A DNA stretch of 64,000 bases, taken from the NCBI GenBank assembly GCA_041658585.1, contig JBAZZX010000008.1, positions 15,365 through 79,364 of the forward strand. The letters are read 5' to 3'. Under the pieces are notes generated by a model. It was not told where the DNA came from. It saw only the letters and a program-made list of their open reading frames with translations, and ran no database searches. Positions within the stretch are counted from its first letter, which is position 1. Every line of letters begins with the position of its first letter. The position numbers and the translations under genes were made by a program. Positions 13,287-63,933 of the stretch are shown in pieces. The stretch is from Thermodesulfovibrionales bacterium. GTDB lineage: Bacteria > Nitrospirota > Thermodesulfovibrionia > Thermodesulfovibrionales > SM23-35.

Positions 13287-15092
13287 TTAAGCTACTGGTA
13301 AGATAAGGAGTATTTTTGTGCCTGTGCCTTCACTGCTTTGGATCTCCATGTCCCAGCCATGCGCCTTTACAAGGTGTTTGACTATAGCCAGTCCGAGACC
13401 GGTCCCCCCGAGATCTCTTGAACGGGCCCTGTCAACCCTGTAAAACCGCTCGCCAAGACGGGATAGGTGTTTCTTCGGAATACCGATGCCGGTATCCTCA
13501 ACGGAAATTTCGATGAAGGATAAGGGATGAGGGATGAGGGACAAATCAGCCGTTTGTTTTGCATTCTGCATTTTGCATTCTGCATTCTGCATTCTTATTG
13601 TTACTCCTCCCTTGTCCGTATACTTTATCCCGTTGTCGACAAGGTTGATTAGTATCTGTATCAGACGGCCTCTGTCCGCGTTTATCCGTATGACTTCGGG
13701 AGATATCTCTTTTTTGAGATAGAGACCCTTGGCGTCGCTCTTGTCTTTCAGGGTTTCAAAAACGGTCTCCGTCACTTCATCGGGATTGACATCCGTCTTT
13801 TCAATCGTTATATCTCCAAGCTCTATCCTTGAGAGGGTGAGAAGATCATTGACAAGGGAGTTCAGGCGTTCGCTGTTGCTTTTAATTGTCTCAAGGAATT
13901 TGAAGGCACTCTCCCTGTCATCGAGGGCGCCTTCAAGGAGCGTTTCCGCAAAACCTTTTATTGCCGTGATGGGGGTCTTTATCTCGTGGGAGACATTTGC
14001 AACGAAATCTTTTCTTACCTCTTCAAGTTTTTTCAGTCTGGTGATATCATGAAACGTCAACACAACGCCGGATAATTCTTCGATGGTTTTATGAGAAGAG
14101 AAGGGTGAAGCGGTGACCATCAGGTGAAGCTCCCTCGGATGGTCGATCTCTATTTCACGGGATATTTTGTGACCGCCTTCGGCAACCATATCTATCAACT
14201 CCATAAGCTCGGCCTTCCGGAATGCCTCCATTAATGTTTTGCCGTCTATGCCCGATGATATGCCGAACAGTTTTGAAACGGCGTCATTACTCAGTATAAT
14301 CCTGCCCTTTGTATCGGTCAGTATCAGGCCGTCCGACATATTTTGGATAATCGCCGCTATCTTCTGTTTTTCATCTTCGCTCTGTTTCAGTTTTGTCTGC
14401 AGTTCATCCGCCATATCGATGATATTTTTGCCGAGCTGACCGAGTTCATCATTGTTTTTCAGAAACAATCTTTTTTTCAAATTCCCTTCCGCCACTTCTT
14501 TTGAAAATTCCGCGATCTCCTCGATAGATTTTGTGACCTTTCTTGTCTGGAAAAGTCCTGTAAGAAGCGCTATGAAAAGTATGGAAAGAGAAGCGATAAT
14601 CACCCTCATCCTGATCTCATTGACAGCCTGTTCAACCTCGTAGAGGGGCATTGACAGCCTCAGGAATCTTTTCGGGTCCGTATCGGTTGATATGGCAAGA
14701 TAAAACTGATTCCTGCTGAGAGTGCTGCTGAACCTTACAGAACTCCCTGTGCCGCTTATATCGGCTTCCTTAATCTCCGGCCTGTTTGCATGGTTCTCCA
14801 TGATATTAGCCGGCTCGTCGGAATCTCCCAAAACTTTTCCTGAATCGTCAATAACCGTTACCCTTGCTCCGGTCCGGTCCTTGAATTGTTTGCTGAAAGC
14901 GTCAAGGTTGTCTGAAAAAGAAAGAGGTATCTGATCCGCAATCAGGCGGGCCTGTATACCGAGGCTTTTCTTGAGGTTTGCAATATAGCTGTCCTTTACT
15001 TCGCGTGAGAGATAAAATTCAAGGGAAAGAAGCAGCAGAGGAGCGATAATAATATAAATCAGCACTATCCTTCTGAAAAGAATATGCTTCAT
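13287..15092 (-). CDS. phoR: phosphate regulon sensor histidine kinase PhoR
   Basis: TM/HAMP/PAS N-terminus, H-box VANVSHEIKTPITAIKGF, and HATPase N/G boxes (LINLVDNGIKYT, DTGIGI, GGTGLGLAIVKH). Overlaps phoB by 1 nt. Confidence 0.9.
   Translation of the reverse strand: MKHILFRRIVLIYIIIAPLLLLSLEFYLSREVKDSYIANLKKSLGIQARLIADQIPLSFSDNLDAFSKQFKDRTGARVTVIDDSGKVLGDSDEPANIMENHANRPEIKEADISGTGSSVRFSSTLSRNQFYLAISTDTDPKRFLRLSMPLYEVEQAVNEIRMRVIIASLSILFIALLTGLFQTRKVTKSIEEIAEFSKEVAEGNLKKRLFLKNNDELGQLGKNIIDMADELQTKLKQSEDEKQKIAAIIQNMSDGLILTDTKGRIILSNDAVSKLFGISSGIDGKTLMEAFRKAELMELIDMVAEGGHKISREIEIDHPRELHLMVTASPFSSHKTIEELSGVVLTFHDITRLKKLEEVRKDFVANVSHEIKTPITAIKGFAETLLEGALDDRESAFKFLETIKSNSERLNSLVNDLLTLSRIELGDITIEKTDVNPDEVTETVFETLKDKSDAKGLYLKKEISPEVIRINADRGRLIQILINLVDNGIKYTDKGGVTIRMQNAECKMQNAKQTADLSLIPHPLSFIEISVEDTGIGIPKKHLSRLGERFYRVDRARSRDLGGTGLGLAIVKHLVKAHGWDMEIQSSEGTGTKILLILPVA
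13512..13595 (-). repeat. 84-nt block of 12 phased heptanucleotides inside phoR, in frame
   Basis: Sense strand: (AGAATGC)x3 AAAATGC AGAATGC, then three non-repeat heptads, then CCTCATC CCTCATC CCTTATC CTTCATC. It encodes RMQNAECKMQNAKQTADLSLIPHPLSFI between the N-box region and the DTGIGI box. Confidence 0.85.
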
Positions 15093-15790
15093 TATTTTCC
15101 GTCGAAGAAGTAACCTATCCCGCGCAGGGTTTTTATATATACCGGTTTCGCCGGATCTTCTTCTATACTTGAACGCAGTCTTCTGATGTGTACGTCGACA
15201 GTCCTCGGCTCAACAAACGCCTCATCACGCCATACGGCATCGAGGAGCTGGTCTCTGCTGAATACCCTGCCTTTTCTTTCGGCAAGAAAAAGGAGCAGTT
15301 TGAACTCTGTTGCGCTCAGTTTGACGGACTTCCCTTTGACTGCAACGGTATATCTTTCCGAGTCTATATCGAGGTCTCCTGTTTTCAATGTCCTGACGGA
15401 TGCGGGTTGCTCTGCGGATCTCCTCAGCACAGCCTTGACACGCGCTATAAGCTCTCTCGGGCTGAAAGGCTTTGTCATATAATCGTCCGCCCCCATCTCA
15501 AGACCGATTATCCTGTCTACTTCCTCTCCCTTTGCAGTAAGCATGATAATCGGCAGCCTTGCAGTCTTTGGATCGTTTCTTATGATGCGGCAGATCTCCA
15601 TCCCCTGAACGCCGGGCAGCATAAGGTCAAGGATAACCAGGTCGTATTTCCCTTTCCTGATTTTTGCGAGCGCATGTTCCCCGTCCGAGGCTGAATCAAC
15701 GGCAAAGCCTTCCTTTTTCAGGTTATATAAGACCAGATCCGCAATATCGGCCTCGTCATCAACAACAAGGACATGCTTTAAGGTATCCAC
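15092..15790 (-). CDS. phoB: OmpR-family response regulator PhoB
   Basis: Receiver domain (VVDDE…DLVILDLMLPG…) plus a winged-helix C-terminal domain. Immediately upstream of phoR and overlapping it. Confidence 0.9.
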   Translation of the reverse strand: MDTLKHVLVVDDEADIADLVLYNLKKEGFAVDSASDGEHALAKIRKGKYDLVILDLMLPGVQGMEICRIIRNDPKTARLPIIMLTAKGEEVDRIIGLEMGADDYMTKPFSPRELIARVKAVLRRSAEQPASVRTLKTGDLDIDSERYTVAVKGKSVKLSATEFKLLLFLAERKGRVFSRDQLLDAVWRDEAFVEPRTVDVHIRRLRSSIEEDPAKPVYIKTLRGIGYFFDGK

Positions 15791-15894
15791 ATAATACTTA
15801 TAGCATTTTCAGGGATTGTTCCGCAATAAAGCATTCAGACAAATGCAAATGTCCCATACATTAATGATACAATATGGACATTGGAGGTTTATCA

Positions 15895-16920: not shown

Positions 16921-16951
16921 TTACGGGCCGAACGGATAAAGCAGGGGATCC

Positions 16952-17377: not shown

Positions 17378-17386
17378 AGTTAACTG

Positions 17387-18828: not shown

Positions 18829-18949
18829 AGAAACCCTTTAGCCATTATATCACAGCGTCATCCGACTTATGAATGAGAAGAAAGCAGTGAGAGAATATGA
18901 TAGAATAAATCAATCGTGAAAACCCTTCTTACGCAGAAAAGTTGATAAT

Positions 18950-20008: not shown

Positions 20009-20401
20009 ATGGTCAGGTATATCAATGTGAGGAGCAAATCACGAAACGAGTTTATTGACATTACCGAGATGGTCCAGGAGGTGGTAAAAGAGGCCGGTAT
20101 AACAAAGGGGATATGTTATTTGTATGTGCCGCATACTACTGCCGGGATTACGATAAATGAAGGGGCCGACCCGAGCGTGCAGCGGGACATCGTCAATGCG
20201 CTGAGCAGGCTTGTCCCTCATGAAATGAACTATTCCCATCGCGAGGGCAATGCAGACGCCCATATAAAAACCACCCTTGTCGGCTCATCGTTGAATGTAA
20301 TCGTCGAAGAGGGCAAATTGCTCCTCGGTACCTGGCAGTCGATCTTTTTCTGTGAATTTGACGGCCCAAGGCACAGGAGGATAGCGATTAAATTCATATA
20401 G
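20009..20401 (+). CDS. yjbQ: YjbQ/UPF0047 family protein (secondary thiamine-phosphate synthase-like)
   Basis: 130 aa with …ITEMVQEVV…GICYLYVPHTTAGITINEGADPSV…NADAHIK… typical of UPF0047. Confidence 0.8.
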   Translation: MVRYINVRSKSRNEFIDITEMVQEVVKEAGITKGICYLYVPHTTAGITINEGADPSVQRDIVNALSRLVPHEMNYSHREGNADAHIKTTLVGSSLNVIVEEGKLLLGTWQSIFFCEFDGPRHRRIAIKFI

Positions 20402-20457
20402 CTATAAGTTCTCCATCAGTTACATAAAACAACATCGCAAGAAGTCCTTTTCATGGC

Positions 20458-20542
20458 TGTCATTCCCGAAGTCTTTAATCGGGAATCCATTCTTTTCAAG
20501 AAGTTGCGCGCACCTGGATTCCCGCCTTCGCGGGAATGACAA
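20458..20542. repeat. REP-like double hairpin
   Basis: ATTCCCGA-N9-TCGGGAAT (20462-20486) and ATTCCCGC-CTTC-GCGGGAAT (20518-20537) are framed by GTCATTCCC…GGGAATGAC. ORF 20420-20614 is merely their translation (…SFPRRRESR…). Confidence 0.5.
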
Positions 20543-20596
20543 CTCAAAACACTCGAAACATATGTAAAGAAGCGTTGGACGCACTACAATAGATAT

Positions 20597-21433
20597 ATGA
20601 AGCCTGATAAACATACCAATGAATATAAATCCCTCCGGGATGAAATCAAAAGGCTCAGGAAATCGCTTTCGGAACTCACCCCTCCGTTAGAAATATTGCT
20701 GAAACGCAGAGGGTTTAAAATATATAAAAAAGAACCATCCGACGATCTGCTGCTGCCGGGAAGCGAATATATCGCAAGCTATTACGAAATGATGAAGAAA
20801 TATTCCTTCCGGCTTTTTCTCCGCGAGGTTATCAAGCACCAGACGTTTTTCAGGCTCGAAAACGTTACGCGCTATGCGACGTCGGAGGTGACGGCGGCTT
20901 ATGTTGAATATGCAAAGAGCATAGGCATTATTGGGGATGTGCCTGGAGGTTTCAGGCTTGTTCCCGGTCCGATCAAGAGTTTCGGGGAAACCCTTGAGTG
21001 GTTTACGGCGGAAATATTCAAACAGGAACTTGCAACTGAAGCCGTGTGGGGGATACGTTCTAAGCGTCCCGGGGTCGGAGGTGACTATGATCTTATAGCA
21101 AAAGTGGAAGGCTCTATCCTATACATGGAAATAAAATCCTCTCCACCCAAGCAGATATATCAGAAGGAGATTTCAACTTTTCTTGACCGCGTTATAGATC
21201 TTCACCCGGAAATAAGCATATTTTTTGTGGACACGGAACTTAGAATGAAGGACAAAATCGTGCTTATGTTCGGGGAAGAACTTAAAAACAGACATACGGA
21301 CCCTCCTGAAATCATGAGGATGGAAAAAGAACTCTTTCAGATATGGGACAAGATATTTATAATAAATGCTAAGGACAGTATTTCAGCAAATATAGAAAAG
21401 GTATTATGCCGGTATTTCAGGAGGGACAAATGA
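20597..21433 (+). CDS. hypothetical protein with a PD-(D/E)xK nuclease-like motif
   Basis: 278 aa. …PGVGGDYDLIAKVEGSILYMEIKSSPP… fits the D-x(n)-E-x-K pattern. The preceding region is helical and could be a winged helix. Its stop overlaps the next start (ATGA). Confidence 0.65.
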   Translation: MKPDKHTNEYKSLRDEIKRLRKSLSELTPPLEILLKRRGFKIYKKEPSDDLLLPGSEYIASYYEMMKKYSFRLFLREVIKHQTFFRLENVTRYATSEVTAAYVEYAKSIGIIGDVPGGFRLVPGPIKSFGETLEWFTAEIFKQELATEAVWGIRSKRPGVGGDYDLIAKVEGSILYMEIKSSPPKQIYQKEISTFLDRVIDLHPEISIFFVDTELRMKDKIVLMFGEELKNRHTDPPEIMRMEKELFQIWDKIFIINAKDSISANIEKVLCRYFRRDK

Positions 21434-23853: not shown

Positions 23854-25353
23854 ATGTTATATCCTGATTTAGAAACTTTTAAAGCTCTTTCGTCTCAGGG
23901 CAACCTCATCCCGGTCTACAGAGAGATACTTGCCGATACGGAAACTCCGGTGTCGGCAACCCTGAAACTTGGGGGTTCACCGGCTTTCCTGCTTGAAAGT
24001 ATGGTAGGCGGGGAGAAATGGGCGCGGTATTCCTTCCTCGGCTCAAAGCCGTCAAGAATTATTAAAGCCCGGGGGAACAGGATCGAGATAAAGGACAAAC
24101 AAACAGGGACACGGCGTTTCAAGGCAGACAACCCCATGGATGTTGTTAAAAAAGAACTTGCTGCATATAAACCGGTAAATGTGAGGGGGCTGCCGAGATT
24201 CTTCGGCGGGTTGGTCGGATATATAGGCTACGATATGGTCAGATTCTTTGAAGAGCTCCCTGACAATAAAAAACAGGGCCTGAAAATGCCCGACCTTTTT
24301 CTCATGGTCACGGATACGGTTATTATCTTTGACAACCTGAAAGGCAAGATAAAAGTCGTCTCCAATGCCCATATCAACGGCAAGTCTCCCGAGGAGGCAT
24401 ACCGGGAAGCAGAGGAGAAAATAGATAGTATTATCGAGAAGCTGCGGAGGTCAAAAGGCAGGACCAGAAAGGCAAATCCCCTTCTGCCTTCTCTTACCGA
24501 AGAGAGGCGGGAAGGCGGGTATTCATCCTCATTTACGTCAAGAGAGGCTTTTGAAGACGCGGTAACAAAAAGCAAGGAATACATTCTATCGGGAGATGTG
24601 GTCCAGGTTGTCCTTTCTCAGAGGTTCGACCGTGAATTTGCCCTTGATCCTTTCAATGTATACAGGGCTCTGCGTATTATCAACCCCTCTCCTTACATGT
24701 ATTATATCGACACGGGGGACGCAAAACTCGTCGGTTCATCCCCTGAAATTCTGGTAAGGCTTGAAGGTAAAAAGATCATCCTGAGACCTATTGCCGGGAC
24801 GCGGAGAAGGGGTGAAACGGAAGAGGAAGACAAGCTCCTTGAAGAGGAACTCAAGAAAGACCCCAAGGAAATGGCGGAACATATTATGCTTGTTGACCTC
24901 GGCAGAAACGATGTAGGAAGGGTTGCAGAGATCGGTTCCGTTAAGGTTACGGAGCTGATGTCCGTGGAACAGTACAGCCATGTTATGCATCTTGTGTCAA
25001 ACGTAGAAGGCGCTCTCAGAGACGGTCTTGACGCCTTCGATGTGCTTGAAGCCTGTTTCCCGGCAGGCACCGTCACCGGGGCTCCCAAGGTCAGGGCTAT
25101 GGAGATCATTGAAGAGCTTGAGCCTACAAAAAGAGGGCCCTATGCCGGCGCAGTAGGCTATATCAGTTATTCAGGCAATATGGATACCTGCATAACGATC
25201 AGGACCCTTATAATAAAGGGGAATAAGGTCTATGTGCAGGCAGGCGCAGGGATTGTCGCCGACTCGGTTCCGGAAAAAGAATATGAAGAGACGGTCAACA
25301 AGGCTATGGGCATGATGAAGGCCGTTGATATGGCGGAAACGCAATTACAATAA
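23854..25353 (+). CDS. trpE: anthranilate synthase component I
   Basis: 499 aa with …[12 protein letters not shown]…, …PSPYMYY…, …[19 protein letters not shown]… motifs, followed by trpG and trpD. Confidence 0.95.
24454..24530 (+). repeat. heptamer-phased low-complexity segment inside trpE
   Basis: AAAGGCA at 24454 and again at 24468. CTTCTGC/CTTCTCT at 24481-24494. GAGGCGG/GAAGGCG at 24504-24517, followed by ATTCATCCTCAT. It encodes …[27 protein letters not shown]…, a linker that looks longer than usual. Confidence 0.5.
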
Positions 25354-30467: not shown

Positions 30468-31751
30468 ATGTATTTCATATATAGCCTCATATATATTATC
30501 GTAATCATCATTCTTTTGCCTTTTGAATATCTCAAAAGACCGGCGGAGATTAGAAGAAAATGGCTTAGAGATAAGTTCGGTCTTTTAGATGCATCCTTCA
30601 TCCTTAACCCCTCATCCGTTGTTTGGGTCCACGCCGTATCAGTCGGCGAGGTTATGGCCGCATCACCGCTTTTAAAAAAATTAAGAGAACGCTATCCGGG
30701 AAAAAGGATAATCCTTTCCACTATAACCGACACCGGGCAAAAAGTTGCAAGAGAAAGAGCGCCCGAAGGAACAGCCGTTGTTTATCTTCCCTTTGATATC
30801 CCTTTCATATTGAACAATGTTTTGAACAGGGTAAAACCCGACCTGCTGATCGTCATTGAAACCGAACTCTGGCCCAACCTGATAAGGGGTTTCAATGAGA
30901 AAGGAATACCCGTACTGCTGCTCAATGGAAGGATATCCGAAAAATCATTTAAAGGTTATAAAAAGGTATCACGCTTTATGAAAAAAGTCCTTTCCCATGT
31001 AGATTTCTTCGGTATGCAGAGTGAGGAATACGCAGACAGGATCAGGCAATTGGGAGTTGATGCCCGCAGAGTTGTGACATTAGGCAATTTCAAATTTGAT
31101 ACCATACCTCCTTCAGAACTCCCGCTATGGACAAAGGAATTGCAGGGTCCGGTTATTGTTGCAGGCAGCACCTTTGAAGGTGAGGAAGAACTGATGACCG
31201 ATGTTTATCTTAAGCTTAGGGAAGACTTCCCTGATATCAATCTGATCATCGCCCCACGCCATCCCGAGAGGTTTAAACCCGTTGAAGAAATGCTCAAATC
31301 AAAAGGGGTCTCATTTGTAAAACGTTCCGGAATTGATAGCTTAAAGTCGCAGAACGTTGAACGCAGAACGTTGAACGGTTTTATCGTCCTTCTCGACACA
31401 GTCGGCGAACTGTCATCCGTTTACGGCATATCGGACATCGCCGTTATCGGAAAGAGTTTCAGAGGCCGTGGAGGCCAGAATCCCCTCGAACCCGCCTACT
31501 GGGGCAAGCCCATCATATGCGGCCCGCATATGGAGAATTTTCCGATTATCGGGGAGTTTTACAAAGAAGGCGCTGCTATCCGGGTCGGAGAAGAAGACCT
31601 CCTCACAAAATTAAAAGACCTCCTCCTTTCACCCGAAAAGTCAAAAGCAATCGGCTCAAAGGCACGGATGCTATACAATAAAAACGCCGGAGCAGTTGAA
31701 AAGGCGATGGAGATTATTGAAAGGCGAATTTCTAAAACGGATTATTCATAA
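30468..31751 (+). CDS. waaA: 3-deoxy-D-manno-octulosonic acid (Kdo) transferase
   Basis: 427 aa with …VWVHAVSVGEV…, …ETELWPN…, …DTVGEL… and …GGQNPLEPA…, the WaaA/KdtA hallmarks. Confidence 0.9.
   Translation: MYFIYSLIYIIVIIILLPFEYLKRPAEIRRKWLRDKFGLLDASFILNPSSVVWVHAVSVGEVMAASPLLKKLRERYPGKRIILSTITDTGQKVARERAPEGTAVVYLPFDIPFILNNVLNRVKPDLLIVIETELWPNLIRGFNEKGIPVLLLNGRISEKSFKGYKKVSRFMKKVLSHVDFFGMQSEEYADRIRQLGVDARRVVTLGNFKFDTIPPSELPLWTKELQGPVIVAGSTFEGEEELMTDVYLKLREDFPDINLIIAPRHPERFKPVEEMLKSKGVSFVKRSGIDSLKSQNVERRTLNGFIVLLDTVGELSSVYGISDIAVIGKSFRGRGGQNPLEPAYWGKPIICGPHMENFPIIGEFYKEGAAIRVGEEDLLTKLKDLLLSPEKSKAIGSKARMLYNKNAGAVEKAMEIIERRISKTDYS
31349..31376 (+). repeat. tandem GCAGAAC GTTGAAC x2 (four phased heptamers) inside waaA
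   Basis: Perfect 14-nt duplication GCAGAACGTTGAAC GCAGAACGTTGAAC, encoding …SQNVERRTLN… just before the DTVGEL motif. Confidence 0.8.
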
Positions 31752-51200: not shown

Positions 51201-52501
51201 ATATCGTAATAAGGAATGGACATATTATTGACCCGTCACAGGGGATTGACGGAGTTGGGGACATATATATAGAAAGCGGAAAGATAAAAGAAATAAACAT
51301 AAAGAGCATGGAGCATGGAGCTCGGAGCACGGGGCAAAAACCGCAATCATCCGACGTCCGGATTATTGACGCAAGCGGGCTTCTGATTGTCCCCGGCCTT
51401 ATCGATATGCATGTGCATCTGAGAGAGCCGGGGTTTGAATACAAGGAGACGATAAGAACCGGAACTCTCGCTGCAGTCAAAGGCGGTTTTACGACAGTCT
51501 GCTGTATGCCGAATACAAACCCCGTAAATGACCATGCAAGCGTTACCGAATTCATCATAAGAAAAGCGAAACAGGAAGGTCACTGCACCGTTCATCCTAT
51601 CGGCGCAATAACCAAAGGCCAGAAAGGCGAAGAGCTTGCGGAGATAGGGACGATGAAGAATGAGGGCTGTATTGCCTTCTCCGATGACGGCCAGCCTGTG
51701 ATGAACAGCGCCATGATGCGCAGGGCGCTTGAGTATTCAAAGGCTTTCAAAGTGCCGGTCATCTCGCACAGTGAAGATCTTACCCTTTCAGACGGCGGAG
51801 TAATGAACGAAGGACTGACGTCCGTAACTCTCGGACTAAAAGGAATCCCGGCAGAGGCTGAACAGATAATGATTTTCAGGGATATCCTGCTGGCAGAGCT
51901 TACAGGCGGAAGATTGCATATAGCCCATGTATCAACTGCCGGTTCGGTACATCTTATCAGAGAGGCCAAACAAAGGGGGATAAACGTCACTGCTGAAACG
52001 TGTCCTCATTATTTCAGTATCACTGAGGACGCCGTTAAAGGATATAACACAAACGCAAAGGTCAACCCCCCTTTAAGAACAAGCCGTGATTTGGAAGCTA
52101 TAAAGGATGGGTTGAGGGACGGCGCTATCGACGCTATAGCAACCGACCATGCGCCTCATCATGTTGATGAAAAACTGCAACCCTTTGACATGGCCCCTTT
52201 CGGGATATCGGGACTTGAAACCGCGCTGAGTCTGAGCCTGCAGCTTGTAAGGGAAGGTGTTCTGACAAGAAAAGAACTCGTTGGAAAGATGACCCTGAAT
52301 CCTGCAAAGATACTCGGTCTTGATAAAGGCTTTCTAAAGCCCGGTTCCGAGGCGGAGTTGGTCGTGATAGACGAGAACAAAGAATTTGAGGTTAAGTCCG
52401 AACGATTTGTATCAAAAGGTAAAAACACGCCTTTTGAAGGAAGGATATTAAAAGGAATGCCTGTATTCACGTTTTGCAAAGGAAAACTCTATGAGCTGTA
52501 A
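51197..52501 (+). CDS. pyrC: dihydroorotase
   Basis: …[14 protein letters not shown]… metal-binding motif, …DHAPH… motif. ATGA overlap with pyrB. Confidence 0.93.
51304..51338 (+). repeat. five phased heptamers inside pyrC (GAGCATG GAGCATG GAGCTCG GAGCACG GGGCAAA)
   Basis: Read directly from the sequence. It encodes …[12 protein letters not shown]… in the loop between the N-terminal beta-strands, where dihydroorotases are normally about 10 residues shorter. Confidence 0.8.
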
Positions 52502-53693
52502 GGCGCTGCTGGTCCTTTCCGACGGCATTGTTTTTGAAGGAAAGAGTTTCGGCGCAAGCGGAGAGACGCTTGGCGAGGTTGTCTTCAACACCTCGATGAC
52601 AGGGTATCAGGAGATACTTACCGATCCTTCATACAGGGGTCAGATCGTTACCATGACCTATCCGCAGATGGGCAACTACGGTGTGAATGAAGAGGATATT
52701 GAATCTCTGAACGGCCCAAAGGTCGAGGGTTTTATTGTAAGGGAATATATCGATTTCCCGAGCAACTGGAGGACTAAAAAGTGCGGAGCGCAAAGCGCCG
52801 GGCGCGGAGTCATACACTCGTTAGGAGATTATTTGAAGGCTTATGGGATAGTCGGCATAGAACATATAGACACTCGCGCATTGACAAGGCATCTGAGAAA
52901 CCACGGCGCCCGGATGGGTATAATTTCTACCGTTGATCCTGATCCTGAAAGCCTTTTGAAAAAGGTGAAAAAACATCCCGGCATATCGGCCTTTGATTTA
53001 GTCAGGGATGTTACGGCGAAAGAGATATATAAATGGCAAGACGGAGTATGGAAGTGGAAACGGGAAGAAAAAGAAGCTGAAAAGGAATCCTCCGCCCTAC
53101 GCCCTACGCCCTCTGCATTTAAACGGGTGGTTGTTTACGACTTCGGAGTCAAATTCAACATCCTCCGTAATCTTGTTGACGCGGGGTTTGACGTTACGGT
53201 TGTGCCTGCGCAGACCCCTGCGGAAGCAGTGCTTGAAATGGACCCTGATGGGGTTATCCTCAGTAACGGCCCGGGAGACCCTGAGACAGTCACTTATGCA
53301 ATCGGGAATGCAAAAAAAATAATTGGCAAAAAGCCCGTCTTCGGGATCTGCCTGGGACATCAGATACTCGGTCTTGCAATGGGCGGCAGGACATATAAAC
53401 TGAAATTCGGCCATCACGGCGGCAACCATCCTGTCAAAGCTTTAGTTACCGGCAGGGTTGAGATAACATCTCAGAACCATAACTACTGCGTTGATATCAA
53501 CAGTCTTCGCGGCCGGGTCAGGCTTACCCATAAAAACCTCTACGACGGGACTGAAGAAGGCATGGAGCATGTGGAATTGCCGGTATTTTCCGTCCAGCAC
53601 CATCCGGAAGCAGGCCCGGGACCGAACGACGCCGCGCATATTTTTAAAAGATTCAGAGATTTGATAGAGGGAGTTTGTGCCGAAAAGAACTGA
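52491..53693 (+). CDS. carA: carbamoyl-phosphate synthase small (glutaminase) subunit
   Basis: …[17 protein letters not shown]…, catalytic GICLGHQ and …QHHPE…. Confidence 0.95.
52784..52811 (+). repeat. four phased heptamers inside carA (CGGAGCG CAAAGCG CCGGGCG CGGAGTC)
   Basis: Encodes …[11 protein letters not shown]… between SNWR and SLGDYLK. E. coli CarA reads SNFRNTEDLSSYLK here, about 10 residues shorter. Confidence 0.7.
53093..53113 (+). repeat. three phased heptamers inside carA (CGCCCTA CGCCCTA CGCCCTC)
   Basis: 21 nt, exactly 7 codons (ALRPTPS), in the inter-domain linker. The linker is about 7 residues longer than in E. coli CarA. Confidence 0.8.
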
Positions 53694-56600
53694 TATTAAA
53701 AAGATACTCCTCATAGGCTCCGGCCCTATCATAATCGGCCAGGCATGTGAGTTCGACTATTCCGGCACGCAGGCCTGCAAGGCTTTAAGGGAAGAGGGAT
53801 ATAAGGTCGTCCTGGTCAATTCCAATCCTGCAACCATTATGACGGACCCTGAGACTGCCGATGTAACATACATCGAGCCGTTAACTGCCGACATCCTTGA
53901 AATGATAATAAAGAAAGAAAGACCGGATGCCATCCTCCCTACAATGGGCGGCCAGACCGCACTGAACCTCGCTGTCGAACTTGCCGAAAAAGGCATACTT
54001 GATAAATATAAGGTTGAACTCATCGGAGCAAAGCTTGACGCTATCAGGAAGGCTGAAGACAGAGAGCTTTTTAAAGAGGCCATGAAAAAGATCGGGCTTG
54101 ATGTCCCGGTATCCGCACATATCGGGTCTATGAAAGACGGGCTTGAAGCGGTCGAATATATAGGTTTCCCGGCTATCCTCAGACCTTCTTTTACCCTGGG
54201 AGGGACCGGAGGCGGCATTGCGTACAACATAGAGGAGTATCAGGTATTGCTTGAGCGGGGGTTAAAGCTCAGTCCCGTCGGGCAGGTGCTGGTGGAAGAG
54301 TCCGCCCTTGGCTGGAAAGAGTATGAGCTTGAGGTCATGCGGGATGTGAAAGATAATGTCGTGATAATATGTTCAATAGAGAACTTTGATCCGATGGGGG
54401 TCCACACCGGCGATTCGATTACTGTTGCGCCCGCACAAACCCTCACCGATAAAGAATACCAGAGGATGCGCGATGCGTCTATCGCGATCATACGCGAGAT
54501 CGGGGTCGATACCGGCGGCTCGAACATCCAGTTCGCCCTGAATCGGGATAACGGCAAAATGATAGTTATAGAGATGAACCCAAGGGTCTCACGAAGCTCG
54601 GCCCTTGCATCAAAAGCGACCGGTTTCCCCATAGCAAAGATCGCGGCAAAGCTTGCAGTAGGGCTGACCCTCGAGGAGATCCCGAATGACATAACAAGAG
54701 AAACCCCTGCGTCCTTTGAACCGACGATAGATTACGTAGTTACAAAGTTTCCCCGGTTTGCCTTTGAAAAATTCCCGGAAGCTGACCCAACCCTTACAAC
54801 TCAGATGAAATCCGTTGGCGAGGTTATGGCAATCGGGAGGACGTTTAAAGAATCCCTGCAAAAGGCGATAAGAAGCCTCGAGATCGGAACACGCGGTTTT
54901 GAAGACGTCCAGGCTGATATGAACGTCATCAAATCTAAACTCAAAACTCCTAACGCTGAAAGAGTCTGGTACATTGCACAGGCAGTGCGGGAGGGAATGA
55001 GCATTCAGGAAATCCATGAGCTCACATGGATCGACCCGTGGTTTCTGGAGAATATAAAACAGATTATAGAAATGGAAGGGCGAATTTCTGCAGAAGCCCC
55101 GAAGCTCGGAAGTTCGGACCCTGAACTGATCTTCCCGCCTTCTCATCTTCATAACTTCTTGCCTTTGCTGAAGGAGGCCAAACAGCTCGGGTTCTCCGAC
55201 AGGAGGATTGCCCAGCTTCTCAATCTGCAAGAAGCCGATATAAGGCATTTAAGAAAGCGGAACAGCATAAAAGCTGTTTACAAGATGGTCGATACCTGTG
55301 CCGCAGAGTTTGCCGCTTACACCCCTTATCTGTATTCGACTTATGAAATACCATTTTACACAATTCATCCTTCATCCCTCACACTTAATCCTTTGGTCGA
55401 GTGTGAAGCCAACCCCTCGGACAGGAAAAAGGTCATTATACTCGGCTCGGGTCCGAACAGGATCGGCCAGGGCATTGAATTCGACTATTGCTGCGTCCAT
55501 GCAGTGTTTGCATTGAAAGAACTCGGTTATGAAACGATTATGGTCAACTGCAATCCCGAGACGGTCAGCACCGACTATGACACTGCCGACAGATTATATT
55601 TTGAACCCTTAACTATAGAAGATGTTTTGAACATTATAGACGCCGAAAAACCGGAAGGAGTTATTGTTCAGTTCGGAGGACAGACTCCGTTGAAACTTGC
55701 AGTGCCTCTTGAAAGGGAAGGTGTTAAAATCCTCGGCACTTCGCCTGATTCTATTGACAGGGCGGAGGACAGGAGACGCTTTAAAGAACTCCTTCATAAA
55801 CTCAACCTGAAACAGGCCGACAGCGATACGGCGATGTCGGTTGACGAGGCTTTATCCGCTGCCGGAAGGATCGGGTATCCTGTTATGGTAAGGCCGTCAT
55901 ATGTGCTCGGCGGCAGAGCGATGGAGATCGTCTATGACGAGAATTCACTCAGTGAATATATGAAGAGGGCCGTCAAGGCATCTCCGGAGCATCCCGTGCT
56001 CGTGGACAAATATCTTGAAGACGCCATAGAAGTAGACGTAGATGCTATCTCGGACGGCAAAGACGTAATCATCGGCGGCGTTATGGAACATATAGAGGAG
56101 GCGGGCATCCACTCGGGCGATTCAGCCTGTTCCCTTCCCCCGCACTCTCTGCCTAAAGAAATCGTCAGAGAGATAAAACGCCAGACAAAGGCCCTTGCCA
56201 GGGAACTAAATGTCATAGGTCTTATGAACGTTCAGTTCGCCGTCAAGAATCAGGACATTTATATCCTTGAAGTCAATCCAAGGGGATCAAGGACAATCCC
56301 CTTTGTCGGAAAGGCAACCGGCGTTCCATTGGCAAAGCTTGCCGCCAAGGTTATAGTCGGCAGGACATTAAAGGAATTAGGGGTTACGAAAGATAAAAAT
56401 ATCAAACATATTGCAGTGAAAGAAGCCGTTTTCCCGTTTGACAGGTTCCACGGAGTCGATTCCATCCTCGGCCCTGAGATGAAATCTACCGGCGAGGTAA
56501 TGGGTATAGACAAGGATTTCGGCATTGCCTTTGGAAAATCCCAGATATCCTGCGGCAACAGGATCCCTTTGGAAGGCAGGATATTTATCAGTCTGAAAGA

Positions 56601-57660: not shown

Positions 57661-60330
57661 ATGGTTAAAAAAGTTATTCCGGAAATATTTTTAAAATCCG
57701 CCGGGGAATATAAGGACAACATTGCCTTCAACTATTTCGATCGGGAATGGAAAAGCATTAAGTACCATGAGCTTCTGAGCAATACCAAAGCGATTGCATC
57801 CTATCTCATTAATAACGGCATTCAAAAAGGCGACAGGGTTGCAGTCCATTCTGAAAACAGGCCCGAATGGTGCACGGCATATCTGGCGCTGTCTATGTCA
57901 GGCGGCATAGGCGTACCGATTGATGTACAGCTTGGTCCGAATGAAATAAAAAACCTGCTTGATGATTCCGAAGCAAAGGTCATATTCCACAGTTCTAAAA
58001 CGGAAGAAAATGTTACAAAAGCATTAAAACAACCCGGCAAGCCGCAAGTTGTTCAAATAAATTTTGACTCACCTGAGTTCAATAAAATCCTGCAGACGCC
58101 CGATATAGGCAAATATCCGGACATTTCAGAGGAAGACCTTGCATCTATCATCTATACCTCCGGCACGACCGGCAAACCAAAAGGGGTTATGCTTACCCAT
58201 AAAAATTTCTGTTCGGACGCCGATGCGCTTATTGAGGCGGGGATCCTTTCGCATGATGACAGTGTTATTTCAGTGCTTCCATTGCATCATACCTATCCTT
58301 TTTTGGGCAATTGCATCCTGCCCGTTTTTTTAGGAACAGCCATCACCTATCCTCAAAGCCTGAAAGGTCCCGATCTTATGGCCGCGATGAGGGATTTCGG
58401 CGTGACCATGCTTGTCAGTGTGCCTCAGTTGCTTGAATTGATACGAAACGGTATTTTCAACAAGATCAGGCAATTGCCCGGACCGCTGCCTAAAATAATG
58501 TTCAGGATATTGAATATCTCGGGAACGCTGAGAAGAAAATTCGACATAAACCTCGGCAAGGTTGTTTTTAAATCAGTCCACAGGTCCCTCGGCGAGAAGT
58601 TCAGGTTCTCCGCCTGCGGCGGCGCAAAGCTCGACCCGCAGGTGATGAAAGACCTTGAGGCGCTTGGGTTGACAATACTTGAAGGGTACGGCCTTACAGA
58701 GACGTCTCCGGTTGTCGCCTTTAATCCGATTGAAAAGAGGAAACCGGCTTCCGTAGGGAAGCCTTTACCATCGGCAGAGATAAAGATAATCGACCCTGAA
58801 AGCGGTAAAGAGATGGATATTATGCGGGAAGGCGAGATTATTATCAGAGGCCCGATGGTGATGAAAGGATATTACAAAAACCCGGAAGCAACCTCGGATG
58901 TTCTAAAAGACGGCTGGTTCCACAGCGGAGATCTCGGGTACATTGATAATGACGGCTATATCTTTATAACCGGCAGGATAAAAGAGGTGATTGTTTTAAG
59001 CTCGGGGAAGAATATCTATCCCGATGAAGTCGAAAAACAGTATCTGAAAATACCGTTGATCAAAGAGATATGCGTAATGGGAGTCGAGGAGAAAGGAATG
59101 ATCGAATCCCTTCAGGCGGTTATCGTTCCGGATACGGAATATGCCAAAACAGCGCAGATCAGCCATATACAGGAAGCCCTGAAATGGGAGATAAATAATG
59201 CTTCTACCCATCTGCCGTCATACATGAGGCTTAAAGGATACACTCTGTATCCCGAACCTCTGCCAAGGACTCCGCTTGGAAAACTCCGGAGGTTTATGGT
59301 CAAAGACTTGTTACAAGCTAAGGACAAGGAGCAGAGAGAGAAGAGCGAAGATCAAAGCCTGATACAAGATGAAATAGGTGGAAAAGTAGCCGAATGTATC
59401 CGGCCTCTTTTAAAAGAAAAAATTCCTATTCAGGCAACGGACAATCTTGAGCTTGATCTCGGGCTCGACTCATTGGCCAAGATCGAACTTGTCGTTATGC
59501 TCGAAAAGGTTTTCTCGATGAAACTGCCTGAAACCCTGACTGCGGAGGCGCAGACGGTTGCAGAATTAATTGTGAGGATTAAGGAATATGACTCCGGTGG
59601 AATCAGATCCGTTAATAAGATGCCGGCCTGGAAAGATATTTTAACGACCGAACCTCCTTTTGATGACAAAAAAAAGGTCGGGTTTCATCACAATTCATTT
59701 GACCGGCTGATTATATTCATGGGGCTGCAATTGGCAAAGATCGTCTCGAAAATATTTTTCAGCCTGATAACCGAAGGTCTTCAAAATATACCGGCACAAG
59801 GGCCGTATATCATCACCCCGAACCACGCGAGCTATCTCGACGCCTTTGCAGTTGTTTCGGGAATGCCGTCAAAAACATTCAGGGACTTATATACCCTGGG
59901 CATTCAGAAATATTTTACCGGAAGAGCCGGGAAATCCTTTGCAAAGCTTGCCAACGTTATACCTATCGACCAGGAAAAATATCTCAATAAAGCCCTGCAG
60001 ATGTCATCATATGTATTAAGAAACGGGAAATCGCTTCTGATTTTCCCTGAAGGAGGCAGGTCCTTTGACGGGGAACTTATGGAGTTCAAGAAAGGCGTAG
60101 GCATACTCGCCCTAGAGTTGAATATACCTGTCATACCTGCATATATCGAAGGCTCTTTTGAAGCCTTGCCGAGGAGTGCAAAATGGCCCAAATTCAGGCA
60201 GATAAAGGTAGCCTTTGGGAAACCGTTATTTCCATACAATGCAGATATGTTGAAGAAACCGGCGGGTACTGATAACTACCAATTCTTTGTCAATGCACTG
60301 AAGGAGCGGGTGAAAAGCTTAAGAAGTTAA
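57661..60330 (+). CDS. tri-domain fusion: AMP-dependent acyl ligase + acyl-carrier (PP-binding) domain + PlsC-type acyltransferase
   Basis: AMP-binding IIYTSGTTGKPKGV, the carrier motif LGLDSLAKIEL, and acyltransferase motifs NHASYLD and FPEGGRS. Confidence 0.85.
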   Translation: MVKKVIPEIFLKSAGEYKDNIAFNYFDREWKSIKYHELLSNTKAIASYLINNGIQKGDRVAVHSENRPEWCTAYLALSMSGGIGVPIDVQLGPNEIKNLLDDSEAKVIFHSSKTEENVTKALKQPGKPQVVQINFDSPEFNKILQTPDIGKYPDISEEDLASIIYTSGTTGKPKGVMLTHKNFCSDADALIEAGILSHDDSVISVLPLHHTYPFLGNCILPVFLGTAITYPQSLKGPDLMAAMRDFGVTMLVSVPQLLELIRNGIFNKIRQLPGPLPKIMFRILNISGTLRRKFDINLGKVVFKSVHRSLGEKFRFSACGGAKLDPQVMKDLEALGLTILEGYGLTETSPVVAFNPIEKRKPASVGKPLPSAEIKIIDPESGKEMDIMREGEIIIRGPMVMKGYYKNPEATSDVLKDGWFHSGDLGYIDNDGYIFITGRIKEVIVLSSGKNIYPDEVEKQYLKIPLIKEICVMGVEEKGMIESLQAVIVPDTEYAKTAQISHIQEALKWEINNASTHLPSYMRLKGYTLYPEPLPRTPLGKLRRFMVKDLLQAKDKEQREKSEDQSLIQDEIGGKVAECIRPLLKEKIPIQATDNLELDLGLDSLAKIELVVMLEKVFSMKLPETLTAEAQTVAELIVRIKEYDSGGIRSVNKMPAWKDILTTEPPFDDKKKVGFHHNSFDRLIIFMGLQLAKIVSKIFFSLITEGLQNIPAQGPYIITPNHASYLDAFAVVSGMPSKTFRDLYTLGIQKYFTGRAGKSFAKLANVIPIDQEKYLNKALQMSSYVLRNGKSLLIFPEGGRSFDGELMEFKKGVGILALELNIPVIPAYIEGSFEALPRSAKWPKFRQIKVAFGKPLFPYNADMLKKPAGTDNYQFFVNALKERVKSLRS

Positions 60331-60351
60331 GAAGTTGCGAGGTTGTTTGTA

Positions 60352-61032
60352 TTACAAGGCCAAAAGATTCAATGATTGCAAAAGATTCATATGGTCCGAC
60401 AAATCCTTTAACACATAATCCGCCTTTGCTTCTGTCAGCTCGTCCATGGAATACGGGCCGGTAGCCACGCCGATACAGACGGCGCCGTAGATATGGGCGC
60501 ATTCGACATCGCGGGGGGTATCGCCGATCACGATGCTTTTTTCAATATCTATCCTTTTATCAAACATTTCCTCAAACCTGTTTACTGCAAACGGCAAAAG
60601 TTTGTTCCTGTCTTCATCGTCGCTTCCAAAGGCCCCTGACGGAAAATATTTATTGAGATCAAAAGGCTCAAGTTTTATCCTTGCGCCCTGTTCAAGATTT
60701 CCAGTGAGAAGTCCTAATCCGATATCTTCAATGGGATTTAATTGCTCCAATATCTCATAAATACCGGGTTTTGTATGTTTTCCGTCATTCCGTATCTCTT
60801 GCCTGAGCTGCAAAAGATAGGCTTCAATAATCGCATCAAAATCGTCCATTGAAAGCCCGTGTTTTATCAAGCCTTCTTTAATTATCTGAGTGTCAGTCTT
60901 GCCCGCCATGCTTATGCCCTGAAAGGCATTGAGAACCGAGAAGACCTTCCTGAATGCAAGATCCAGCGAACGGACCCCTGCCCCGCCCGAATGAATCAAT
61001 GTCCCGTCTATGTCGAAAAGGACCAAGCGCAT
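60352..61032 (-). CDS. HAD-superfamily hydrolase (phosphoglycolate phosphatase-like)
   Basis: Motif I LFDIDGTL, a …GDTPRD… motif III region, and a cap domain in between. Confidence 0.8.
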   Translation of the reverse strand: MRLVLFDIDGTLIHSGGAGVRSLDLAFRKVFSVLNAFQGISMAGKTDTQIIKEGLIKHGLSMDDFDAIIEAYLLQLRQEIRNDGKHTKPGIYEILEQLNPIEDIGLGLLTGNLEQGARIKLEPFDLNKYFPSGAFGSDDEDRNKLLPFAVNRFEEMFDKRIDIEKSIVIGDTPRDVECAHIYGAVCIGVATGPYSMDELTEAKADYVLKDLSDHMNLLQSLNLLAL

Positions 61033-61146
61033 GAATTATTGTAACCTTTACTGTATTTCTCTCTCAAGCTTTAAAGAAAACTTCTGTAAAAAAAGGGCGA
61101 GATTTTTAGCCCACCCTTTTTTATTACGCTATGAAAGAATTATTAT

Positions 61147-62427: not shown

Positions 62428-62702
62428 TGACAGCCTCCTTTTTTAAGTAAAAAATCTCTGCTTTATTATGCTATTCCGGAATGCCTGCTAATACAATTAT
62501 TTCTTTACTATTGCGCTAAAAACTTTTTCCTTATCGATTTTTTCAGGACCTCCTTTAAATTTATTGTTTAATGCTGCACCGTTACTAACGAACTCCACTT
62601 TTTCAATTTTACCACCTTTTCTTTAAAACTTATAGGCCTAATGCCGTTTTGATTTTGTTTTCATGAGATCCAACGATAACTTTATCGCCGATAACAGGTC
62701 AT

Positions 62703-62728
62703 GGGGTCAGGCTTGCCTATTGATATTT
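62703..62728 (+). repeat. dispersed 26-bp motif, copy 4 (GGGGTCAGGCTTGCCTATTGATATTT)
   Basis: Closest to the reverse complement of 10747-10773. It lies just 3' of the truncated transposase fragment. Confidence 0.6.
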
Positions 62729-62758
62729 AGTCCTCTCTTCAGAATTTCAATCACCTTT

Positions 62759-62965
62759 TCAGCTTCGATTTTGTGTCCTGTCCTCGGAGAACATCCTCAG
62801 TACTTGATCCCTATCGATGATACCATCTCCTGATTTTCCTGTATAGCTATTATGGCTGCTCCACCAATACTCCTGCGCTCTTTCAACAACCCTTGCCTTC
62901 ACCGGGTTGAGATGAATGTATTTTACAAGCGATAACAAATACTCATCCCGGTCACAAAGTATTCC
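62759..62965 (-). pseudogene. C-terminal fragment of a Y1 (IS200/RAYT-like) transposase
   Basis: My minus-strand translation reads GILCDRDEYLLSLVKYIHLNPVKARVVERAQEYWWSSHNSYTGKSGDGIIDRDQVLRMF… The YIHLNPV…Y.WSS block is typical of REP-associated Tyr transposases. There is no N-terminal HUH half and no start codon. Confidence 0.6.
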
Positions 62966-62990
62966 TTTATTTTAGACATCCGCAGTTTCT
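62966..62990. repeat. solo copy of the MITE terminal repeat
   Basis: TTTATTTTAGACATCCGCAGTTTCT compared with the terminus at 13235-13258 (ATTTATTTTAGACATCTGCAGTTT). It directly abuts the truncation point of the transposase fragment. Confidence 0.6.
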
Positions 62991-63069
62991 CCGACAGTTT
63001 AAATGTATTTTTCGGGGCAACATACCCCGGTGTTTTTTTATTCAATTTTTTGAGTATAATCTTTCTGTT

Positions 63070-63933
63070 ATGAAAAAACAGGTCAGCATCAGGATGAGAG
63101 CGTCAAAAATAATCCAAAATGCTCGCCTCGGCGAGTCGTCTGGGGCGACAAAACTCAAGACTCAAAACAAAAATATATCGGAAATCCATATCTCCGGGGC
63201 GGAAGGGATATATGAATCGTCTGAGATATTCAGAACGGTTAAAAAATATATTCAAAGGGCTCTAAGGCATCCGAAGGGAGAAGCTGACAGGATTGTAATT
63301 ACCATAGAAACTATTCAGGAAAAGCCTGAAAGCATTTCATCCCTGCCGGTGTCAACGGTTACATGCAACACCCCTGTTGAAGGGAGAAAAATAATCAAAA
63401 AATTACTTCATTCAATTGGGGTATCAAATAAGGCCGTGAATACGGCGTTGTCAATATTGAGAAAAGGCGCTATGCGGGGTGCGGCTATTATTACGGCAGA
63501 AAGCGGACTGCGTCTTGAACCTGACAGGGAACGCGGGGTCAGGGCGTCAAGGCTCGGCATCAGCAAATCGGCGTTAAAACGGCTTAGCGCCGGTCTTTCA
63601 CGCTGCGGGATTAATACCGATATTGTTAGAGAGGCTGTTATCCTTGCATCAAAAGTAGCGGCATCCCGGGAGGTAATAGCGGAATTATGCATGTCCGACG
63701 ACCCAGATTACACGACCGGTTATGTGGCATCGCAAAGGTTCGGGTATATAAGGGTCCCCAATATCAAATTTGTAGCAAACAGGAGCGGCGGCAGGGCCTT
63801 TTTTATCAGGGAAGCCGCAGATGTTGAAAAAATAATAGATTATCTCGAAAGGACCCCTGTCATTATAGATAGTATTTCTCCCTGCCGGGGTGTTACAGGA
63901 ATCGATGAAATCATTGATTGTGTTAATAAGTAA
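63070..63933 (+). CDS. bioW: 6-carboxyhexanoate-CoA ligase (pimeloyl-CoA synthetase)
   Basis: …VSIRMRAS…HISGAEG… and …ELCMSDDPDYTTGYVAS…GY.R… match the B. subtilis BioW blocks (SVRMRAS…HISGGE; ELCWSDDPDYITGYVAG). Confidence 0.85.
   Translation: MKKQVSIRMRASKIIQNARLGESSGATKLKTQNKNISEIHISGAEGIYESSEIFRTVKKYIQRALRHPKGEADRIVITIETIQEKPESISSLPVSTVTCNTPVEGRKIIKKLLHSIGVSNKAVNTALSILRKGAMRGAAIITAESGLRLEPDRERGVRASRLGISKSALKRLSAGLSRCGINTDIVREAVILASKVAASREVIAELCMSDDPDYTTGYVASQRFGYIRVPNIKFVANRSGGRAFFIREAADVEKIIDYLERTPVIIDSISPCRGVTGIDEIIDCVNK
63148..63168 (+). repeat. three phased heptamers inside bioW (ACAAAAC TCAAGAC TCAAAAC)
   Basis: Part of an ~14-residue excess between RMRAS and HISG relative to B. 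subtilis BioW. It is preceded by a small hairpin, CTCGCC-TC-GGCGAG (63122-63135). Confidence 0.6.

Follow-up and report, generated by a model that had tools for sequence, protein, structure and literature searches.

As related in two later papers, heptamer simple sequence repeats (SSRs) are over-represented in bacteria, form the most abundant long-unit SSR class in many of them, and have been ascribed to polymerase slippage (Mrazek 2007, via PMC4679880 and PMC4692102). The described families include the cyanobacterial STRR sequences, GGGAATC of Xanthomonas and GGGGAYT of Nostoc (PMC4692102), and TAACTGA of Beggiatoaceae (PMC4679880). They are mainly intergenic and are depleted from open reading frames (ORFs; PMC4692102, PMC4679880). 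Here, a stretch of 64,000 nt from a Thermodesulfovibrionales bacterium (Nitrospirota) was analysed (assembly GCA_041658585.1, contig JBAZZX010000008.1, positions 15,365-79,364). This whole stretch is called the window. It carries heptamer arrays in genes for a PhoR/PnpS-type kinase, TrpE, WaaA, PyrC, CarA, CarB, and BioW. These are probably heptanucleotide microsatellites, found throughout the Thermodesulfovibrionales, that evolve by misaligned pairing and are filtered for reading frame, stop-free units, and tolerant loops.

The arrays are like the bacterial heptamer SSRs in having 7-nt tandem units, in few to about 10 copies, with many loci in each genome. In both, close relatives differ in copy number and sequence, and slippage has been proposed. 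In addition, one strand of the CCCTCAT family has a G3N4 pattern, as GGGAATC of Xanthomonas does. The location is different. Unlike the described heptamer SSRs, 14 of the 18 arrays counted in the window (86% coding) are intragenic, in frame and in the middle of housekeeping enzymes. TAACTGA of Beggiatoaceae has stops in all three frames. The units also differ from those of the described families, being CCYTCAT, AGAATGC, CAGAAGT, CGGAGTT, and AAGTTCA, and the clade is Nitrospirota. STRR1-3, which Mazel and co-workers are said to have described in 1990, reportedly have the units CCCCAGT, TTGGTCA, and CAACAGT. The window differs from these by unit sequence, with CCYTCAT, AGAATGC, GGAGCAY, CCTACGC, and CAAAACT.

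Rickettsia RPEs, as a later paper describes them, are elements of about 150 bp with a conserved consensus and peptide in each family (Ogata et al. 2000, via PMC10969869). Like RPEs, the arrays are short, selfish-looking in-frame insertions in unrelated metabolic and housekeeping genes, and they presumably add surface segments compatible with function. RPEs are palindromic; here, hairpin potential varies from copy to copy, being strong in carA of a relative (L202, fold z = -6.2), moderate in TrpE of the window (z = -2.5), and absent from PhoR, CarB, and CarA site 2 of the window. Unlike RPEs, they share the 7-nt unit alone, change length in unit steps and behave as microsatellites; no consensus of about 100-150 bp was found. 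The contingency loci of Haemophilus, Neisseria, and Campylobacter are similar in that tandem repeats within ORFs change copy number by slippage. However, contingency loci switch surface or virulence genes by frameshift, whereas the hosts here are essential and cytoplasmic and only frame-preserving variants are seen. The MITE, REP and REPIN families (Nezha, ERIC, Correia; PMC10969869, PMC3116915) are small non-autonomous repeats, often hairpin-forming and occasionally in frame in ORFs. Unlike MITEs, the heptamer inserts have no terminal inverted repeats, target-site duplication or long consensus. The closest known kinds are the heptamer SSRs (STRR, GGGAATC of Xanthomonas) and the RPEs. The class of mechanism is familiar, but the location, in frame in core enzymes, is unusual, as are the clear arithmetic of 7 and 3 and the insertion hot-spots found throughout the order. 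A preliminary description of this DNA, made from its letters, knew of no earlier account of such inserts in these enzymes. The literature searched likewise held no description of such heptamer insertions, nor any for Thermodesulfovibrionales or Nitrospirota in particular.

Period-7 arrays and extra residues in the window

Tandem Repeats Finder (TRF) returned 32 rows for the window, and 12 of these have a period of 7 (2.9-5.1 copies, 69-100% matches). They fall at 13512-13541, 13560-13595, 30592-30617, 31348-31377, 51304-51329, 53089-53112, 55364-55393, and 63149-63168. The period-7 arrays that the preliminary description had placed in named genes were confirmed by TRF, and an extra waaA array (30592-30617) was added to them. 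A period scan gave eight arrays at period 7 and 0-3 at each other period from 4 to 20. Lag matches were also counted in sliding fashion at three thresholds, with regions counted per lag. Lag 7 gave 18/12/5 regions, and every other lag gave at most 10/5/2. For a null model, codon order was shuffled 300 times inside each of 54 ORF-defined genes, with intergenic DNA unchanged. The shuffles had means of 4.69/2.34/0.06 lag-7 regions and none (0/300) reached the observed counts. The preliminary description had named a lack of excess over codon-preserving shuffles as a refuting result, and this was not what was found. The period-7 signal in the window is real and is beyond codon-preserving chance. 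Head-to-tail 7-nt units are present at three or more copies, as in SSRs, and perfect arrays were found in the relatives L202, L208, and L209. Here, L numbers are DNA loci or contigs of relatives, and P numbers are clusters of homologous proteins. The arrays and associated segments of the window are as follows.

PhoR array A: 13560-13597, minus strand; (AGAATGC) x5, translated RMQNAECKMQNA, in a loop of the HATPase_c domain
PhoR array B: 13512-13541, minus strand; (CCCTCAT) x4.3, translated LSLIPHPLSF
TrpE linker: 24470-24535, plus strand; imperfect inverted pair CCTTCTGCCTTCTC / GAGAGGCGGGAAGG, then a TTCATCC remnant; encodes 20 aa
WaaA N-terminal site: 30589-30620, plus strand; degenerate (TCATCCY) array, translated DASFILNPSSV
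WaaA C-terminal site: 31348-31377, plus strand; 14-nt unit CGCAGAACGTTGAA x2.1 (two related heptamers), in a length-variable loop
PyrC array: 51294-51339, plus strand; about 4.5 units of (GGAGCAY) inside a 17-aa extra segment
CarA site 1: 52776-52817, plus strand; 42-nt degenerate array of 6 units (CGGAGCG CAAAGCG CCGGGCG CGGAGTC), encodes 14 aa
CarA site 2: 53083-53122, plus strand; (CCTMCGC) x3.4 after GAA-rich sequence, in the linker joining both CarA domains
CarB insert: 55348-55398, plus strand; 17 aa, with about 3 (TTCATCC) units at 55364-55393, after the STYE motif
BioW N-terminal region: 63146-63177, plus strand; (CAAAACT) x2.9

The arrays coincide with residues that are extra in this lineage, in PhoR, PyrC, and CarB and at two sites each in WaaA and CarA. 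Aligned to the solved structure of VicK (4i5s), PhoR has 19 more residues (11 + 8) in a loop of the ATPase domain. The two arrays are separated by a spacer of about 20 nt (about 13541-13560). WaaA has 10 more residues than Aquifex WaaA, and its residues 41-54 and 293-310 are longer than in the shortest relatives of the order. PyrC has 12 more than the Aquifex dihydroorotase in alignment, and the length and sequence of this segment differ in L001, L002, and L208. L001, from a metagenome-assembled genome (MAG) of the Thermodesulfovibrionales, is the closest genome locus to the window (CarB 81% identical). CarA site 1 adds 12 residues relative to E. coli and to L001, L201, and L203. CarA site 2 exceeds the E. 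coli linker by only about 3 aa, and the clade minimum by about 10 aa. An AlphaFold2 model of the window CarA was too poor for placing the inserts (mean pLDDT 51.8), and alignments to solved structures were used instead. The extra residues fall in loops and linkers, as had been proposed. An antisense CCYTCAT-like match in pyrC (51653-51666) was rejected, since its two units lie in conserved sequence (MKNEG) and it is due to chance.

In CarB, the clearest case according to the preliminary description, 16 extra residues follow E. coli residue 548. This residue is presumably near the boundary of the oligomerisation and carbamoyl-phosphate domains. The site is filled in 6/6 clade sequences examined, with conserved ends and differing interiors. 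The insert is 17 aa long in the window and much longer in most other clade sequences. It is absent from L002 and from all aligned CarB sequences from outside the clade. The segments of PhoR, CarA site 1, and PyrC are likewise absent from the aligned orthologues outside the clade, which bears out their reading as insertions. The neighbourhoods of carB contain 1.59 lag-7 arrays per 10 kb in the clade, compared with 0.35 in 1.47 Mb of non-clade loci (4.5x). Lag 7 dominates in the clade loci, whereas lags 6 and 9 dominate in the non-clade neighbourhoods.

Some relatives have further features at carB. In L208, the insert just past the STYE codons holds an array with an 8-nt period (GACCCCTG) x3.5 beside (GGATTCR) heptamers. 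Therefore, the process is not strictly confined to 7-nt units. In L201 (11208-14514), carB was called as two genes owing to a frameshift, which lies upstream of the heptamer site in the variable linker. The long-read assembly may be in error here, or carB may be truly split, as in Aquifex. In L202 (11271-12305), a flavin-reductase gene and a gene like bAvd/23S-rRNA-IVP lie between carA and carB, and CarB has 1141 aa. A weak lag-7 region of the window (59324-59362) is at the end of the ligase domain of an acyl-CoA ligase-like protein of 889 aa (57661-60330). This protein matches its family at about 5-259 and about 313-558, with a gap of about 50 aa without a match between the two stretches and a long C-terminal extension.

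Insertion is less clear in TrpE and BioW. The TrpE linker varies naturally, and the segment has 62 aa, compared with the usual 52-57. The pair of repeats in it is C-rich/G-rich and is not a clean tandem array; its fold z is -2.53. The nearest relative, P0361, has a heptamer peptide of the KLKVKSS type in this linker. BioW was compared with the B. subtilis and Aquifex proteins, and its N terminus exceeds that of the B. subtilis protein by about 13 residues. The preliminary description had equated each array with extra residues. This held for PhoR, WaaA, PyrC, CarA site 1, and CarB. TrpE, BioW, and CarA site 2 (relative to E. coli) are not clean insertions.

A second family of in-frame inserts was observed. 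It encodes peptides like NPPLPPFTKGGxGG, with a C-rich arm followed by a G-rich arm. These inserts are nested in the heptamer-array loops of CarA, PhoR, and WaaA homologues (e.g., P0004, P0068, P0151, and P0276). The TrpE segment of the window (24470-24535) resembles this family.

Turnover of units among relatives

Four contigs from independent assemblies, L204-L207 (ENA, NCBI twice, and JGI), lie behind PhoR clusters close to the PhoR of the window. They have 95-98% nucleotide identity to the window across most of about 17 kb in common, and their phoR genes are 91-93% identical. With the phoR start-codon region excepted, the in-gene indels of 3 nt or more are two 21-nt events only, both in the PhoR arrays. 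Array A is 21 nt (three AGAATGC units) shorter in L204 and L205 than in the window, and array B lacks 21 nt in L206. The start-codon region of phoR in L206 has indels of 6 and 29 nt. The unit of array A also varies. It is AGAATGC in the window, AAAATGC in L207, and AGAATTC in L206, each in most units. The repeats of array B are less pure in L204, L205, and L207 than in the window. Both PhoR arrays vary by whole-unit copy number between close strains, as SSRs do.

The protein clusters agree with this. A PhoR search gave clusters at 88-94% identity with lengths of 601, 594, and 597 aa. The 14 closest clusters (75-94% identical) have mostly 601 or 594 aa, and some have 597 or 588. Among the 12 closest, the differences are 7-aa gaps exactly within one or the other array, except for a 3-aa tail in two. 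The remaining two clusters are more distant, at 75-76% identity, and their gaps in the same two places are of 5 and 8 aa. Across the order, this loop is an insertion hot-spot in the homologues. The preliminary description had supposed that frame-compatible events alone survive, and had proposed copy-number polymorphism and array length modulo 3 as checks. Each PhoR array differs by 21 nt between the window and some of L204-L207, with frame kept (601 or 594 aa), and every in-gene indel of 3 nt or more outside the start-codon region is exactly 21 nt, in agreement with that view.

It is extremely improbable that the arrays are due to chance, are ancient conserved segments or are assembly artefacts. 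One lag-7 match, in carB at 54927-54962, does sit in conserved sequence and is due to chance. The regions of TrpE and CarA site 2 are naturally variable linkers, and some relatives are long-read MAGs with possible frameshift error, as in L201 carB. However, chance as modelled by the codon shuffles does not yield the observed counts, and ancient segments would not be missing from the orthologues outside the clade. Assembly artefact is excluded, since five independent assemblies (ENA, NCBI, and JGI) share these arrays, each in the same position. The differences among these are in-frame 21-nt steps or substitutions.

WaaA indicates turnover within an array of constant length. In L209, with a waaA gene 95.4% identical to that of the window, the N-terminal site reads as a perfect (TCATCCC)x4; the array of the window at this place is equally long but degenerate. 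Of the 59 differences across the gene, 6 are inside these 30 nt. At the C-terminal site, the single A-to-G difference of L209 is found in both copies of the 14-mer. In P0261, P0267, and P0294, about 7 aa fewer are found in the N-terminal segment. Both sites are hot-spots, and the C-terminal loop has up to about 50 extra aa in relatives.

CarA was surveyed for length in its 120 closest clusters (371-435 aa). Site 1 is empty (3 residues) in 77 and has a 15-residue state in 20. Site 2 ranges from 11 to 58 aa, with peaks at 11, 18, 25, and 32, which are 7-aa steps. It is a hot-spot throughout the order, and the CarB and PyrC sites are hot-spots as well. The 42-nt site 1 is a perfect (CGGAGTT)x4 in L202 and consists of about three (AAGTTCA) units in L208. 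Site 2 of L001 has (CAGAAGT)n followed by (CCYTCAT)n. In L202, site 2 has (GAGTTCG)n and (CGAACTC)n, which are reverse complements and give a strong hairpin. The same unit is found at both carA sites of a genome in L202 (CGGAGTT) and in L208 (AAGTTCA). Over 26 homologues, the units of the two sites do not covary above permuted pairings (184/2000 reach the observed value). Concerted evolution between sites 1 and 2 was therefore dropped.

The 21-nt steps and the spread of substitutions between copies are marks of misaligned pairing and concerted evolution, and they point to turnover that is still going on. Misaligned pairing between units, through replication slippage or intra-array conversion, would lead to units being gained, lost, and homogenised. 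As 7 is not a multiple of 3, an array would be read in all three frames by turns, which would give a peptide period of 7 aa. In an essential gene, the survivors would be net three-unit changes (21 nt, 7 aa) and paired changes that compensate each other. Viable units would have no stop in any sense-strand frame, and orientation would thereby be fixed. Once opened, a loop may act as a neutral landing pad. Old arrays would decay there while others arise anew or are copied in, and this would make the same sites hot-spots. It appears likely that slippage is the molecular mechanism and that the inserts are neutral.

Reading frame, shared units, and the seeding of arrays

The inserted peptides are literal three-frame translations of the units. 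KFKVQSS corresponds to (AAGTTCA)n, EFGVRSS to (GAGTTCG)n, EVRSQKS to (CAGAAGT)n, and SSLIPHPSS to (CCCTCAT)n. The heptamer origin of such peptides was seen in the DNA of L001, L201, L202, and L208. A multi-unit intragenic array must cyclically lack TAA, TAG, and TGA on the sense strand, because the 7-nt unit runs through all three frames. Of the 25 units found in clade genes, 24 are free of stops in sense. When inverted, 15/25 would bring in a stop codon, and all CCYTCAT arrays are among these (antisense ATGAGGG contains TGA). The preliminary description had noted that its two heptamer families always recur on the sense strand, and had argued from this recurrence to a shared source or mechanism. 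The stop-free rule holds for 24/25 units, but the orientation is forced by translation and gives no evidence on origin.

One other possibility is that RNA excision, ribosomal bypass or a step like protein splicing takes the inserts out or passes over them, in which case the mature enzymes would not really contain them. The strong hairpins in some relatives, such as that of L202, are a trait of known bypass elements. Skipped inserts would be expected to be unselected, yet all keep frame, nearly all units avoid stops, and length variants are exactly 21 nt. Conserved boundaries for splicing, or take-off and landing sites, were not found. Skipping is scarcely credible on these grounds.

CCYTCAT is a recurring unit. 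It forms arrays in phoR, carB, and the N-terminal site of waaA in the window, where its 14-mer pattern has 5 matches compared with 0.14 expected. In relatives it is found in carA (L001 and L208) and waaA (L209). The claim of the preliminary description that a CYTCATC family recurs across genes is thus upheld. The companion claim for GCAGAAY is not, as the waaA repeat is a 14-nt duplication with a weak link to phoR. A metagenome scan for three CCYTCAT units gave at least 120 contigs, with G+C of 0.28-0.72 among the matches listed. Some of these arrays are in frame in a leucyl-tRNA synthetase and a Mur ligase, both named by eye from motifs. Among the matches listed, 38 of 125 arrays have an inverted (ATGARGG)n partner at most 150 nt upstream, most at 5-41 nt. 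Frequent convergent (inverted) pairs are a likeness to GGGAATC of Xanthomonas, and carA of L202 is a further instance. A TCA core (TGA on the other strand) is present in 12/25 units, compared with 16% expected (binomial 2e-4, shared ancestry ignored). Inserts of the clade are often made of two parts, a purine-rich array first and a pyrimidine-rich array after it. In some relatives and many metagenome contigs these are reverse complements, and the arrays may form a hairpin. The order-wide hot-spots, the purine-/pyrimidine-rich pairs with hairpins in relatives and the wide spread of CCYTCAT arrays in metagenomes were missed by the preliminary description.

In the window itself, hairpins are not the rule. 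Both WaaA inserts, PhoR, CarB, and CarA site 2 fold no better than shuffles (PhoR z = +0.31, CarB +1.05, CarA site 2 +2.06). A short-range inverted-repeat scan of the window found no hairpins of heptamer arrays. The hairpin reading was therefore rejected for most of the window's own inserts. A further unit, (CACGCAT)n, was observed on the sense strand in two neighbouring CofH-like radical-SAM genes of L202 (591-670 and 2395-2444), at different protein positions, so that adjacent paralogues have a unit in common.

Several points weigh against slippage as the whole account. It does not explain the recurrence of CCYTCAT across genes, relatives, and at least 120 metagenome contigs, the excess of the TCA core or the frequent pairing of an A-type with a B-type array. 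In the relatives compared, no array was caught arising out of local sequence. Where filled CarA site 1 (the window, L202, and L208) was set against the empty site (L001, L201, and L203), no obvious common 7-mer was found as a nucleus for the array. In addition, the inserts are presumably translated, and the basis for this is the frame and stop constraints only.

These points bear on how arrays are seeded, where a second explanation partly overlaps with slippage. The inserts may be copies of a small mobile palindromic element (like RPE, REPIN or MITE) with heptamer arrays as arms, spread through template switching or the action of a transposase. On this view, SSR dynamics would be secondary decay or maintenance. 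The order of array A then array B in PhoR, CarA site 2, and CarB of several genomes would fit such an element. So would the hairpin at carA site 2 of L202, the inverted partners of the metagenomic arrays and the recurrence of CCYTCAT over genes and genomes. The use of one unit at both carA sites in L202 and in L208, and of one unit in the two CofH-like genes, also points in this direction, and convergent heptamer pairs are known in Xanthomonas (PMC4692102). However, the copies share no consensus beyond the 7-nt unit, and the spacers and flanks of PhoR, CarA, and CarB are unrelated. The filled and empty states of CarA site 1 revealed no terminal inverted repeats and no target-site duplication, and classical transposition was rejected on this ground. 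Most inserts of the window lack hairpin potential, the likeness of site 1 and site 2 units is not significant, and no candidate transposase is linked to the arrays. A mobile element is thus a tentative and somewhat doubtful explanation. More specific, and rather unlikely, is seeding by a dedicated copy-and-paste process that is still active, either a hairpin element with a single-stranded DNA transposase or template switching between arrays. The preliminary description had argued for a shared source or mechanism rather than independent slippage. A shared source is plausible but unproven, and the contrast was too strong, as in-situ unit turnover and concerted evolution are visible.

The arrays could also be kept because they are useful. 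They might be evolvable flexible linkers, mRNA hairpins, G-quadruplexes or i-motifs tuning translation or transcription, or contingency loci. The hot-spots do persist order-wide, and antisense (GGGATGA)n has a G3N4 pattern like the G4-forming GGGAATC of Xanthomonas (PMC4692102). By a sequence criterion of at least four G3 tracts at 7-nt spacing, the four perfect units antisense to waaA of L209 and many metagenome arrays fit as putative quadruplexes. The PhoR array of the window has only three intact G3 tracts. The hosts, however, are cytoplasmic housekeeping enzymes rather than surface or virulence genes. Positions are conserved and insert sequences are not. Many relatives do without the arrays, such as the 77 of 120 homologues with an empty CarA site 1, and no out-of-frame allele was found in any assembly or protein cluster compared. 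Most inserts of the window also fold no better than shuffles. A useful role is distinctly improbable. Microsatellite evolution by misaligned pairing, filtered by the reading frame, accounts best for the arrays once they are present.

Neighbouring elements and implications

Other repeats and variable segments are present in the window. An element like a MITE, of about 200 nt with terminal inverted repeats of about 30 nt (AAAACTGCAGATGTCTAAAATAAATATATTT...), lies at 13090-13289, and a partial copy is at 62966-63016. Close relatives have copies elsewhere (L205 7581-7765 and 11783-11964, and L204 7804-7974), and thus it looks mobile in the species group. A segment of about 200 nt (20400-20604) is missing from L204 and L205, which are 96-98% identical. 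It contains REP-like palindromes, GTCATTCCCGAAG...CGGGAATCC and GGATTCCCGCCTTCGCGGGAATGACA. The ORF at 11787-13019 (minus strand, 410 aa) has no NCBIfam match and has a (TCCTTTT) array near its 5' end. Its nucleotide identity to relatives is 70-83%, compared with 95-98% for the neighbouring genes. It is therefore a locally hypervariable gene.

The interior of essential genes is generally regarded as closed to non-triplet microsatellites. Nevertheless, a whole bacterial order tolerates non-triplet arrays in carbamoyl-phosphate synthetase, dihydroorotase, Kdo transferase, and the phosphate sensor kinase. The arrays bear the clean signature of 7 set against 3, in steps of 21 nt, in a 7-aa period of the peptides, and in units that lack stops in a single orientation. 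They form a natural system for measuring how slippage-prone DNA makes proteins vary in length, and for mapping the loops in which well-studied enzymes accept insertions. There is also a practical warning, as the inserts will disturb alignments, HMM scores, and marker-gene phylogenies of Nitrospirota MAGs. If seeding is the work of an element that is active, this would be selfish DNA of a new class, living inside genes. Should copy-and-paste be true, units with an xTCA/TGA core (CCYTCAT, CAGAAGT, AAGTTCA, and CACGCAT) would be spreading into many genes and across phyla. This would be a second selfish DNA, mechanistically distinct from Rickettsia RPEs, that systematically remodels the surfaces of core enzymes.

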